Shown in pieces: positions 8,100-27,200 of a stretch of DNA of 59,578 bases. The notes under the pieces are model-generated. The model was not told where the DNA came from. It was given only the letters and a program-made list of their open reading frames with translations, and did not search any database. The position numbers and the translations under genes are program-made. Source of the DNA: Escherichia coli (GTDB lineage: Bacteria; Pseudomonadota; Gammaproteobacteria; Enterobacterales; Enterobacteriaceae); assembly GCF_003334255.1 (NCBI RefSeq), contig NZ_QOWU01000030.1, one strand, 5' to 3'. The first letter of the stretch is position 1; every line of letters starts with the position of its first letter.

Positions 8100-8290
8100 T
8101 GGTGTCGAACGTAGGTCAGATAAGGCGTTCACGCCGCATCTGACATGAATGGCACATTTGTTACCTTGTGCGCATTGCCGGATGCGATGCTGGCGCATCT
8201 TATCCGGCCTACGGGTGCCGAACGTAGGTCGGATAAGGCGTTCACGCCGCATCCGACATTAATGGCACGTTTTACCCGTGCGCATCGCAT
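8100..8290. repeat. REP/BIME cluster, two tandem related units
   Basis: Two ~50-nt copies of gtaggtc(a/g)gataaggcgttcacgccgcatc(t/c)gacat(g/t)aatggcac; palindromic REP consensus. Confidence 0.8.
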
Positions 8291-8297
8291 CTGGTGC

Positions 8298-9218
8298 TTA
8301 CTCGCCCTTTTTCGCCGCCTGAATATACAGCATTTCCAGCGCCAGCGTTGCCGCTGCCAGAGCAGTGATTTCCGACTGATCGTATGCCGGAGCCACTTCC
8401 ACTACGTCCATCCCAACAATGTTGAGATCTTTCAGGCCGCGTACCAGTTTAATAGCGCGATCGGAGGTCAGGCCGCCAATCACTGGCGTACCGGTGCCTG
8501 GTGCAAAAGCAGGATCCAGGCAGTCGATATCAAAAGTCAGGTAAACCGGCATATCACCCACAATCTGTTTCACTTGGGCGATAACGTCATCCACGCTGCG
8601 ATCGTTCACCTGGCAGGCGTCCAGCACGGTAAAGCCGTTGTCTTTATCAAACTCGGTACGAATACCAATCTGCACGGAATGATTCGGGTCGATCAGACCT
8701 TCTTTCGGCGCGGTATAGAACATAGTGCCGTGGTCAAATTCACAACCGTTCGCATAGGTATCGGTGTGGGCGTCAAAGTGTACCAGCGCCATTTTGCCGA
8801 AATGCTTCGCATGAGCACGCAGCAGCGGCAGCGTAACAAAGTGGTCACCACCGAAAGAGAGCATACGCTTACCGGCAGCCAGCAGCTTCTCGGCGTGCGC
8901 CTGCAGCTTTTCGCTCATCTCACGGGCATCGCCAAAGGCATATACCAGATCGCCGCAGTCCACGACGTTCAGACGCTCACGCATGTCGAAATTCCACGGG
9001 AAGCGGTTGTGTTCCCAGGCCAGATTCGTCGAAACCTGACGGATCGCTGCCGGACCGTGGCGACCACCCGCACGACCAGAAGTGGCCATATCGAACGGCA
9101 CGCCAGTAATCACCCAGTCTGCATCGCTGTCATACGGCTGGAAGTTCATCGGCAGGCGTAAAAAACCAAAGGCATTGGAAACCAGTGAGTTATCGTATTG
9201 ATGACCTAAGGTGCTCAT
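8298..9218 (-). CDS. speB: Agmatinase, 306 aa
   Basis: Arginase-family sequence; downstream of speA on same strand. Confidence 0.95.
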
Positions 9219-9246
9219 GGATGGACTCCTATTACAAAGTCGATAT

Positions 9247-9286
9247 AAAAAAACCCTTCCGCGTCGTTAGGCCCGACGAGGAAGGG
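9247..9286 (-). terminator. Intrinsic terminator/attenuator between speA and speB
   Basis: Stem cccttcc…ggaaggg followed on the minus strand by a U-run (plus-strand aaaaaaa 9247-9253). Confidence 0.6.
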
Positions 9287-9355
9287 TTGGATTTGTCACA
9301 ATAAATTGTGGCGGATTATCACCGCTAAATTAAGCGGATTCAAGTAACACAGGAC

Positions 9356-25086: not shown

Positions 25087-25102
25087 TACCGGGGCGAGGC
25101 GA

Positions 25103-26149
25103 TTAGTACTGATTGAAGATCTGCTGGATCTGCTGCGGATCTTTGGTTTGCGTCAGAGCCAGTTGCAGCAGAACGCGCGCTTTTTGCGGGTTCAGCGTGC
25201 CAGAGGCGACGAAGCCGTATTTCGCATCATCCACTTCGGCATCCTGAGTGGTAGCGCCCGTCGGTACGCGGGAAGAACGCACGACTGCAGTACCGGTTTT
25301 CGCGGCGGTCGCCAGCGTGTCGAACACAGATTTATACAGGTTGCCGTTACCCACACCAGCGCTAACGATGCCATCATAGCCCGCATCTACCAGTGCTTTA
25401 GCCGGAAGATCGGATGCGTTAGCGTAGTTATAAACAATGCCGACTTTCGGCAGTTCATTCAGCTTAGAGACATCGAATGGCGTGTCGCTGGTATGCTTAC
25501 GTGCCGGGGTACGCTGGTAGTCAATCTTACCGTTGTGAATGTAACCCAGAGGACCGTAGTTAACAGACTTGAAGGTCGCTACGTCGGTGGTGTTGGTTTT
25601 GGTGACGTCACGGCCATCAAGCACGGTGTCATTCATCACTACCAGCACGCCACGGTTGGCGGAGGCTTTATCAGCTGCGGTCACTACCGCGTTATACAGG
25701 TTGAATGGACCGTCTGCGCTCATAGACGTGGACGGACGCATTGCGCCGACCATCACCACCGGTTTGTCGCATTTCACCGTCAGGTCGAGGAAGTAAGCAG
25801 TTTCTTCCATCGTGTCGGTACCGTGGGTAATGACGAAGCCGTCGGTCTTATCGCAGTCGGTGTTAATTTTTTTCGCCAGTGTCAGCCAGACATTATCGTT
25901 CATGTCCTGGGAGCCGATATTCACTACCTGCTCGCCTTTAACGTTCGCAATGTCTTTTAGTTGCGGCACCGCATTAACCAGATTTTCTACGCCAACTTTA
26001 CCCGCTGTGTAGTTAGATTTGGTTGCGGAGTCACCACCACCGGCAATGGTCCCGCCGGTTGCTAAAATGGTGATATTGGGTAATGCCAATGCTGCACCAC
26101 TAAAACCCATAACCAGTGCGGCAAGTGCCGTCTTTTTGAAAAACTCCAT
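25103..26149 (-). CDS. ansB: L-asparaginase II (periplasmic), 348 aa
   Basis: Signal peptide plus TGGTIAG active-site motif. Confidence 0.95.
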   Translation of the reverse strand: MEFFKKTALAALVMGFSGAALALPNITILATGGTIAGGGDSATKSNYTAGKVGVENLVNAVPQLKDIANVKGEQVVNIGSQDMNDNVWLTLAKKINTDCDKTDGFVITHGTDTMEETAYFLDLTVKCDKPVVMVGAMRPSTSMSADGPFNLYNAVVTAADKASANRGVLVVMNDTVLDGRDVTKTNTTDVATFKSVNYGPLGYIHNGKIDYQRTPARKHTSDTPFDVSKLNELPKVGIVYNYANASDLPAKALVDAGYDGIVSAGVGNGNLYKSVFDTLATAAKTGTAVVRSSRVPTGATTQDAEVDDAKYGFVASGTLNPQKARVLLQLALTQTKDPQQIQQIFNQY

Positions 26150-26324
26150 TTCATTCCTCCAGTTACGTGAACGCTACGCATTATCCCTTAGCTCTGTATG
26201 GGAAATTTGACGTTAAACAATTTACAACGTGAATATATTTTGGAGATCTACAAAGTTAGAGGCAGGTAACAAAACGAAGAATTAAACGGCATAAAAAAGT
26301 ATTATGCCGTCTTAAAATAGAGGA

Positions 26325-27044
26325 TTATTTTAAATTCCCGACCAGGGCTTTGCGGCTATCTTCCAGAGTCACAACGCGGCTACAAACATCTTTGCCAAAC
26401 TGCTGGAAATCTTTTTCCTGCTTTTTCCACTCGGTTTGGATTGAGGATTGCAGCCCCCCCAGGCTTCCCAGCACATTCTGTAATGGGTTACCGCCGCTTT
26501 TCAGCACCGCTTTCGCGCCCATTTCATTAATGCTGTCCTGTAAAATTCCACCCATTGCCTGATTCACTAATTGCTGGCCTTCGGCGCGAACCTGATCAAT
26601 GGCTTTATAGTGAAACGTCAGGCCATCGCTGCGCGTTTCAATAATGCGGTTCATCTGCTCTTTCAGCTGCGCATCAAGTTTGGTCAGACGGCTGCGCATT
26701 TTGCTGCTTTCGCCCATCTCCTGAACGATAATTTTATCCAGAGCAATACGGGCTTTCTCGACGCGGCTTTTCGCGCCTTCATCAATCCACGGCAGCGTGC
26801 TGCGTAGTTCAGCCTGATAATCCTTCGCCTGCTCGCGCTGGGCGGCATTCAGGGAATATTGCTTACCGTTATACATCACGTTGCCGTCTGGCGTGATCAC
26901 CAGATTGCCGTTTTCGCCCTTCACCTGCACGGTTTGCGGGCTGACAATCACATCGTCACGCGGCGTGACGCTGCACTGGTAGTCGGCGTGAGCGGTCATT
27001 GCCGTCACTGAAAGTGCTGCCGCCAGCAGCATTTTGCGCATCAT
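26325..27044 (-). CDS. yggN: DUF2884 periplasmic protein YggN, 239 aa
   Basis: Signal peptide, conserved position. Confidence 0.8.
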   Translation of the reverse strand: MMRKMLLAAALSVTAMTAHADYQCSVTPRDDVIVSPQTVQVKGENGNLVITPDGNVMYNGKQYSLNAAQREQAKDYQAELRSTLPWIDEGAKSRVEKARIALDKIIVQEMGESSKMRSRLTKLDAQLKEQMNRIIETRSDGLTFHYKAIDQVRAEGQQLVNQAMGGILQDSINEMGAKAVLKSGGNPLQNVLGSLGGLQSSIQTEWKKQEKDFQQFGKDVCSRVVTLEDSRKALVGNLK

Positions 27045-27104
27045 AGTCTTCCCTCAAGAAAAAATCAGGCCAGCATTTGCTGGCCCCAGATTGATAACAA
27101 AGTA

Positions 27105-27200
27105 CGCGTTTTCCATGCCGGATGCGGCGTAAACACCTTATCCCGCCTACTCGATCGTGCATCTTTCCAGGCCTGATAAGCGTAGCGCATCAGGCAGTTT
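27105..27200. repeat. REP/BIME elements
   Basis: gccggatgcggcgtaaacaccttatcc … ggcctgataagcgtagcgcatcaggc. Confidence 0.75.

Follow-up and report, generated by a model that had tools for sequence, protein, structure and literature searches.

This report concerns repetitive extragenic palindromic (REP) elements, and the bacterial interspersed mosaic elements (BIMEs) that they form, in a 59,578-nt stretch of Escherichia coli DNA (contig NZ_QOWU01000030.1 of assembly GCF_003334255.1), referred to below as the window. The classes of REP, or palindromic unit, are reportedly those of Stern 1984 and of Gilson and Bachellier. A REP is defined as an extragenic, imperfect palindrome of 30-40 nt with an internal mismatch and a GTAG/CTAC foot, and the classes y, z1 and z2 are distinguished (PMC3333891). 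K-12 carries 584 REPs, just 84 of them single; BIME-1 joins z1 and y through a long IHF-binding linker, BIME-2 consists of z2 and y in tandem, with a copy number that differs from strain to strain, and other arrangements are atypical (PMC3333891). REPs are regarded as non-autonomous partners of the transposase RayT, or TnpA_REP; this enzyme attaches to the hairpin with the GTAG, for which the mismatch in the stem is required, and it cleaves and religates BIME DNA in single-stranded form (PMC3333891). Our analysis indicated that the repeats at five intergenic sites in the window are almost certainly all ordinary E. coli REP elements of classes Y, Z1 and Z2, mostly grouped as BIMEs.

The gaps between genes were read by eye and searched with anchored regular expressions, and an nhmmer profile was then built from the units found and run at E<1e-3. 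The results showed twelve REP units (seven Y, three Z2 and two Z1) at exactly five intergenic sites, namely loiP-speB (site 1), after metK (site 2), ruvX-yggR (site 3), hemW-yggM (site 4) and yggL-yggN (site 5), and all twelve fall between annotated genes. The profile scan at this threshold found no further unit across the 59,578 nt, and its remaining matches were reverse-strand echoes of the palindromes. A preliminary description of this DNA had noted related units with one palindromic core at five or more sites. Alignment and the profile scan settled the number of sites at five; the recurrence is real, but the units number twelve in three classes, and only about half of them had been noticed. 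The sites had been correctly named for loiP, metK, ruvX and hemW, but the fifth had been placed after yggN. Because yggN and yggL are both minus-strand genes, yggL lies upstream of this gap (27045-27227) and yggN downstream of it.

The 27-nt core given in the preliminary description matched five places with at most three mismatches (8118-, 8231-, 19387+, 23834+ and 27117+), compared with no match in 100 dinucleotide-preserving shuffles, and the sole exact copy is at 23834-23860. The metK copy, 13334-13360 (-), contains a 1-nt deletion (CCTATCC) and was therefore missed in the mismatch-only search; it was picked up by repeat-finding and by the profile scan. A candidate sixth site in the trmB/mutY gap (28328-28352, repeat-finding family D6) reached profile E values of only 1.3-4.5 and was rejected as unsupported. 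In O157:H7, the one other strain whose sequence spans this whole gap, no unit was found there.

We then compared the region with other genomes. The segment 8000-27300 had matches in all 5,426 complete E. coli genomes, several of them at 100% identity. The window is collinear with K-12 MG1655 from 3421 to 35863, where collinearity ends at pheV, and window positions convert to K-12 positions by adding 3,074,579. In K-12 the five REP sites thus fall at about 3,082,688-3,082,838, 3,087,903-3,087,939, 3,093,964-3,094,092, 3,098,411-3,098,539 and 3,101,694-3,101,776. Over 26,001 bases (window 3421-29421) there were two differences from K-12 MG1655 and none within the five REP-bearing intergenic regions, which bears out the earlier remark that such repeats are ordinary for E. 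coli. The REP finding is thus real, correctly interpreted and ordinary, with the loci present base for base in K-12. The RefSeq K-12 record lists no REP features over this stretch. Five REP-bearing gaps occur in the 35.9-kb core, compared with about 2.7 expected from 355 annotated REP loci per 4.64-Mb genome (PMC4550694). The Poisson estimate for five or more is about 0.15, and the REP density is within expectation and not unusual.

The twelve units were aligned to each other over 40 columns, with a mean column identity of 76% and invariant GATGCG and ATC blocks. An external comparison set came from a search for the exact 27-mer in bacterial genomes, one for each species. At least 120 stretches matched, mostly from E. 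albertii and E. coli, each with many copies, and in addition from Pseudocitrobacter. All consensus and count figures from this set refer to the matches listed. The consensus of 130 fully flanked external copies was T-GCCGGATGCGGCGTGAACGCCTTATCC-GGCCTAC, with the CTAC foot conserved in 90-95%. REP-like hairpins in about 1 Mb of Escherichia and Pseudocitrobacter DNA were then sorted by the length of the inner segment, which gave the consensus sequences TGCCGGATGCGGCGTGAACGCCTTATCCGgCCTAC for Y (n=197), TGCCTGATGCGCTaCGCTTATCAGGCCTAC for Z1 (n=68) and GCCtGATGCGAcGCTggCGCGTCTTATCagGCCTAC for Z2 (n=73). Each unit in the window was 80-94% identical to its best-scoring class consensus, a score that does not itself separate the classes. 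Since global identity failed to separate Z1 from Z2, the classes in the window were set by inner-segment length. The alignment of the units to each other and to the REP consensus, proposed earlier as a check, thus supported their identity, with 76% column identity among themselves and 80-94% against externally derived sequences. Queries containing units had a median of 13-24 matching places per genome among the 5,426 genomes. Single-copy occurrence and misalignment to the Y, Z1 or Z2 consensus were both tested, and the units were multi-copy and aligned.

As single-stranded DNA, 8 of the 12 units folded into the canonical imperfect palindrome, with energies of -8.4 to -11.7 kcal/mol and z-scores of -2.9 to -4.8. 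Across the alignment, the outer stem was 93.5% paired, compared with 24-48% in slid-partner controls. One stem pair occurred with all four Watson-Crick types, and another changed between CG and UA four times. This pairing and these compensatory changes indicate that the palindrome has been maintained, beyond mere inheritance, and the palindromic consensus that had been ascribed to the units is present. RNA folds of the whole intergenic regions gave z-scores of -3.0 to -5.1 relative to shuffles. The stem mismatch GATGCG...CTTATC, with its unpaired positions, is present in 11 of the 12 units; the remaining one, s4c, reads GATGCGG...CCGCATC, that is, GGATGCGG...CCGCATCC in place of GGATGCGG...CCTTATCC, a near-perfect palindrome that therefore lacks the mismatch typical of REPs.

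Several observations weigh against identifying the repeats as ordinary REPs and BIMEs. Four Y units (13324, 19385, 23832 and 27115) have mutated stems and form no canonical DNA hairpin (z about -1.1 or weaker). Only 7 of the 12 units retain the exact CTAC/GTAG foot, and two more are one mismatch off (CTAT, CGAC). The stem mismatch that s4c lacks is needed for TnpA_REP binding (PMC3333891), so this unit should be a poor RayT substrate. The linker of the Y and Z1 pair at site 5 contains no IHF consensus, so the pair is not a canonical BIME-1, and rayT is not in the window.

The arrangement of the units was that of BIMEs, with two or more alternating REPs and short linkers, at sites 1, 3, 4 and 5 (two to three units each), while site 2 has a lone unit. 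Six of the seven neighbouring pairs are inverted, the exception being Z2 followed by Z1 at ruvX-yggR; at the external loci, 172 of 183 neighbouring pairs were inverted, in clusters of 1-12 units. The loiP-speB and hemW-yggM clusters are Y/Z2 clusters of the BIME-2 type. The ruvX-yggR cluster (Y, Z2, Z1) is an atypical BIME, because s3c shares its orientation with s3b. At site 5, the listed units are 12 nt apart, or 16 nt if the distance is measured between the CTAC foot of s5a and the s5b stem. The IHF core consensus WATCAANNNNTTR had no match in the five gaps, and its single match in the window is at 30162. In view of the short linker and this result, site 5 (yggL-yggN) was called an atypical BIME. 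Tandem arrays with the 91-nt period of the site-4 module were also found at other places in E. albertii and E. coli. Between 19383-19480 and 23830-23927 (sites 3 and 4), 90% identity extends over a 98-nt Y-linker-Z2 module, with the linker counted in, and this likeness suggests copying or conversion of the doublet in one piece.

All units sit at gene 3' ends. The core part of the window has four convergent gaps, and BIMEs occupy three of them; the divergent gaps have none. The distance from stop codon to REP stem is 9 nt for hemW and yggR, 20 nt for loiP, 22 nt for yggM, 32 nt for yggL, 40 nt for speB and 49 nt for ruvX. Intrinsic terminators were found at metK (13301-13325) and yggL (27086-27067, -), each a hairpin with a T run that is separate from the neighbouring REP, and none was found at the convergent gene pairs that carry BIMEs. 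The yggL terminator ends roughly 20 nt upstream of the start codon of yggN (27044), a distance that leaves scarcely any room for a yggN promoter there.

To follow the sites between strains, the region from five other strains was scanned with the window-derived profile. The number of units was constant at sites 2 and 5 in all five, and at site 3 in all but 02E060, where the weak Z1 unit drops below the threshold. Site 1 has three units in the window strain, K-12, O157:H7 and B, and E138 has seven there, repeating at a period of 113 nt; 02E060 lacks units at this site, where the gap is occupied by a D-glucosaminate phosphotransferase system (PTS) operon (dagF to dagR). Site 4 has three units in the window strain and five in O157:H7, and in B and E138 it is reduced to one near-perfect palindrome; 02E060 again lacks units, and the gap is taken up by a three-gene tripartite ATP-independent periplasmic (TRAP) transporter. 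Among the 5,426 genomes, the K-12-like allele of site 1 (at least 80% coverage) was present in 3,600 and the dga junction, with the 7.4-kb D-glucosaminate PTS operon and dagR in the gap 8093-8297, in 563; the K-12-like allele of site 4 was present in 2,446 and the TRAP junction (gap 23825-23978) in 1,467. The final ~30 nt of hemW differ between the BIME and operon alleles. In a neighbouring gap, speB-speA (9219-9355), 02E060, E138 and O157:H7 carry an extra 732-bp gene, annotated variously as membrane protein, lipoprotein or hypothetical, which is absent from the window, K-12 and B.

Sites 1 and 4 are polymorphic, both in how many units they hold and in whether a BIME or an operon fills the gap; BIME-2 elements typically behave in this way, and the two sites can serve as strain markers. 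The lone site-4 unit of B and E138 is of the perfect type of s4c, so the three- and five-unit alleles may have arisen by insertion of a 91-nt Y/Z2 module into an older lone palindrome. A broader proposal is that REP/RayT activity or REP-REP recombination makes or heals the accessory-operon junctions, the BIMEs marking and promoting turnover at sites 1 and 4. We regard this as unlikely; the alternative is that BIMEs simply accumulate in tolerant gaps between convergent genes. By eye, REP-like remnants appeared at the operon junctions of 02E060 ('ttgtaggtcggtaacgcc' after loiP and a hairpin 'ttgccggataac...ttatccggcaa' after the TRAP operon), and these candidates were rejected. The profile gave no match in the junction segments even at E<=10, and REP-mediated exchange is accordingly not claimed from the remnants.

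Other explanations of the repeats were weighed on the same evidence. The units could be unrelated intrinsic terminators, alike only as G+C-rich palindromes, and their position at gene 3' ends and their stable folds agree with this. No unit, however, is followed by a T run, and the real metK and yggL terminators are separate hairpins that adjoin the REPs. The units also have 27-38 nt of sequence in common, beyond structure, and that sequence recurs many times per genome. Common sequence and genome-wide dispersal refute the terminator explanation, which we consider extremely improbable. Even less credence can be given to a degenerate CRISPR array, or to remnants of insertion sequences or miniature inverted-repeat transposable elements (MITEs), whose probability we take to be close to nil. 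Short repeats of ~30-40 nt with partial dyad symmetry do recur at intervals here, and site 1 contains a 113-nt direct duplication. Neighbouring units are nevertheless inverted rather than direct, and the linkers are not unique but conserved from site to site (98 nt at 90% identity, sites 3 and 4). Tandem Repeats Finder detected no array at any of the five sites. The distance between sites is 3-6 kb, the genes around them are housekeeping genes, and the annotation has neither a cas nor a transposase gene; the units also lack terminal inverted repeats around a body. Orientation and linkers thus refute this explanation, and the warning that the repeats should not be taken for CRISPR was sound, given the alternating orientation, the recurring linkers and the lack of an array in Tandem Repeats Finder.

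A further explanation, which we judge improbable, is that the hemW-yggM and loiP-speB clusters are mainly genes for naRNA4-like small RNAs that bridge DNA cruciforms with the protein HU, and neither passive repeats nor stabilisers of mRNA 3' ends. RNAs of the Y+Z2 type can act with HU in nucleoid condensation, the HU-dependent condensation needs the two-hairpin Y+Z2 RNA, and more than 30 REP-derived RNAs occur in nucleoid RNA (PMC4550694). In the Rfam model of naRNA4 (RF02564), which comes from the REP325 cluster, a linker joins a Y hairpin to a Z2 hairpin. Its match to site 4 at 23885-23955(-), with 60.9 bits, narrowly exceeds the gathering score of 59.5, and site 1 was matched at 8114-8209(+) with 53.5 bits; sites 1, 3 and 5 were all below the gathering score, and no other family matched in the Rfam scan. 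The site-4 match lies on the minus strand in the 3' region of yggM and could thus be transcribed. On the other side, the model derives from one REP cluster and scores any Y+Z2 pair, so a match shows repeat homology rather than a gene. The linker at site 4 is also 6 nt shorter than that of the model, and its Y hairpin contains non-standard pairs. The small-RNA reading is, in any case, compatible with the identification of the units as REPs and BIMEs and not opposed to it.

The positions and properties of the twelve REP units, together with the gene map, which is based on the RefSeq annotation of K-12 and strain A14, are given in Table 1.

Table 1. REP units and annotated genes in the window (positions in nucleotides of the window; E, profile E value)
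Feature	Position	Strand	Class or source	E	Hairpin	Context and remarks
s1a	8109..8146	-	Y-type, stem variant GTCAGAT...ATCTGAC, CTAC foot	2.6e-10	DNA hairpin -8.8 kcal/mol, z -3.9	Opens the loiP-speB BIME; stem 20 nt past the loiP stop
s1b	8175..8214	+	Z2-length class (12-nt inner segment), Y-like outer stem	1.5e-7	-11.6 kcal/mol, z -3.3	Middle unit of the loiP-speB BIME; overlooked in the preliminary description; aligned as Z2 hairpin of Rfam naRNA4
s1c	8222..8259	-	Y-type	3.3e-11	-10 kcal/mol, z -3.9	Third unit of the loiP-speB BIME; falls in the 113-nt direct duplication (8094-8159 vs 8207-8272, 88% identical)
s2	13324..13360	-	Lone truncated Y-type	2.2e-7	Weak, z -1.1	After the metK terminator; no outer stem, no CTAC foot, 1-nt deletion
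s3a	19385..19422	+	Y-type, decayed (GAACACC, CCAGCACAC)	6e-10	No canonical DNA hairpin, z -0.8	Opens the ruvX-yggR cluster; orthologous unit intact in O157:H7 and E138
s3b	19433..19472	-	Z2-type	8.7e-9	-10.3 kcal/mol, z -4.8	Partial Rfam naRNA4 match, 42.3 bits
s3c	19482..19513	-	Z1-like, short inner segment	4.4e-4	-8.4 kcal/mol, z -2.9	Stem 9 nt beyond the yggR stop codon
s4a	23832..23869	+	Y-type, outer stem weakened (CCAGCCGAC)	4e-11		Stem 9 nt beyond the hemW stop codon; inner hairpin appears in the RNA fold
s4b	23880..23919	-	Z2-type	1.8e-7	-10.1 kcal/mol, z -3.8	Supplies the Z2 half of the naRNA4 match 23885-23955(-)
s4c	23923..23960	+	Y-derived near-perfect palindrome (TTATCC -> GCATCC)	4.6e-7	-11.7 kcal/mol, z -4.2	91 nt from s4a
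s5a	27115..27152	+	Y-type, decayed (GTAAACACC, CCCGCC), CTAC foot	1e-9	DNA hairpin weak, z -0.8	Within the yggL 3' untranslated region
s5b	27165..27197	-	Z1-type	5e-5	-8.4 kcal/mol, z -4.1	32 nt past the yggL stop, upstream of the yggL intrinsic terminator
loiP	7334-8092	+	RefSeq annotation of K-12/A14			
speB	8298-9218	-	RefSeq annotation of K-12/A14			
speA	9356-11332	-	RefSeq annotation of K-12/A14			
metK	12127-13281	+	RefSeq annotation of K-12/A14			
galP	13705-15099	+	RefSeq annotation of K-12/A14			
ruvX	18921-19337	+	RefSeq annotation of K-12/A14			
yggR	19521-20501	-	RefSeq annotation of K-12/A14			
hemW	22688-23824	+	RefSeq annotation of K-12/A14			
yggM	23979-24986	-	RefSeq annotation of K-12/A14			
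ansB	25103-26149	-	RefSeq annotation of K-12/A14			
yggN	26325-27044	-	RefSeq annotation of K-12/A14			
yggL	27228-27554	-	RefSeq annotation of K-12/A14			
trmB	27554-28273	-	RefSeq annotation of K-12/A14			

The link between these units and RayT was examined in K-12, where the window-derived profile identified six units flanking rayT (b0228), two upstream and four downstream. The gene with its flanking units is the REPtron of PMC3333891. At megablast sensitivity, rayT was found once per genome in 3,569 of the 5,426 genomes. The earlier statement that the repeats should not be mistaken for mobile elements is too strong, as REPs are RayT partners (PMC3333891) and the number of units differs between strains at two of the five sites. 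In the mechanism that we propose, the single RayT (TnpA_REP) enzyme would spread, amplify and trim the repeats by cutting and rejoining single-stranded DNA, a plausible route to the changes in unit number seen across strains, and recombination between copies may also alter the number of repeats.

The position of the units also suggests roles after transcription and in the DNA itself. Genome-wide, REP hairpins act as barriers to 3'-to-5' exonucleases after downstream Rho-dependent termination (PMC6061677). The transcribed hairpins described here would likewise stop 3'-to-5' exonucleases and so fix and stabilise the upstream mRNA 3' ends. As the convergent pairs have no intrinsic terminator, the REP hairpins are likely exonuclease barriers there, and stabilisation of the mRNA would matter most at these three gene pairs. 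According to PMC12306157, Liang et al. 2015 reported that ribosomes stall, and expression falls, where a REP lies within 15 nt of a stop codon. With stems at 9 nt, inside that range, hemW and yggR are candidates for REP-dependent stalling control, in which the REP may stall the terminating ribosome and reduce expression. Gyrase cleaves preferentially at the Y units of BIME-2, independently of transcription (PMC6379681), and as DNA the BIME-2 Y units in the window would be preferred gyrase sites as well.

Beyond the collinear core, the window contains other material. The tRNA-Phe gene pheV is at 35787-35862, and directly beyond it the window diverges from K-12, A14 and G1/2. The best matches of the island that follows (35864-59578) carry annotations for a conjugal nickase/helicase, a type IVB pilus (PilN, PilO2), a PilV shufflon adhesin and a UvrD-like helicase. 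At least 80% of the island was covered in just 5 of the 5,426 complete genomes, and the profile scan found no REP unit in it (35864-59578). This rare island is not in K-12 despite the near-identical core. Two differing bases in 26 kb together with a rare island indicate that the strain has a K-12-like backbone and different accessory content.

For the annotation of this and similar DNA, the repeats should be masked or labelled, lest later scans flag them as CRISPR, small RNA genes or mobile-element ends, and the borderline naRNA4 match at 23885-23955 is best taken as homology to REPs. An exact copy of the enterobacterial REP 27-mer was also present in short contigs whose labels name metagenome-assembled genomes of Oscillospiraceae, Bacteroides and Bacteroidales, and in one contig from Desulfosporosinus sp. 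OT. These contigs with non-enterobacterial labels likely represent contamination or mis-binning with Escherichia DNA.

Finally, we compared the five sites with the known systems that they resemble. CRISPR arrays share with them short, partly palindromic repeats, but CRISPR repeats are direct, evenly spaced, separated by unique spacers and usually beside cas genes, whereas the REP units alternate in orientation, their linkers recur and the sites are scattered. The naRNA4/REP325 locus has the same two-hairpin layout of Y, linker and Z2, and site 4 scores above the gathering threshold of the family. Site 4 differs in lying between hemW and yggM rather than yjdM and yjdN, in having three units instead of six tandem repeats and in its shorter linker. 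The inverted REP doublets of Pseudomonas (REPINs), and RAYT-associated REPs in general, are similar in that an inverted doublet appears to behave like one unit, to judge from the 98-nt module shared by sites 3 and 4, and in the tie to a single-copy rayT with the same repeat classes on its flanks. In the E. coli doublet, however, one half is of class Y and the other of class Z, and a single long perfect hairpin therefore does not result.

The BIMEs themselves are the closer relatives. Site 5 resembles BIME-1, or repetitive IHF-binding palindromic (RIP) elements, as a single copy of an inverted Y and Z1 pair, and differs in its short linker without an IHF site. Sites 1 and 4 resemble BIME-2 in alternating Y and Z2, in the strain-variable number of units and, at site 4, in the 91-nt period found elsewhere, although the window strain has merely 1.5 repeats of the module. 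With the E. coli REP classes Y, Z1 and Z2, the units agree in length, in the imperfect palindrome with its mismatch, in the foot, in their extragenic sites and in having hundreds of copies per genome. Four Y units have decayed by point mutations, s2 is truncated and s4c is a near-perfect palindrome, but nothing essential separates the units in the window from these classes: they match the three class consensus sequences, and their loci are identical to those of K-12 MG1655.

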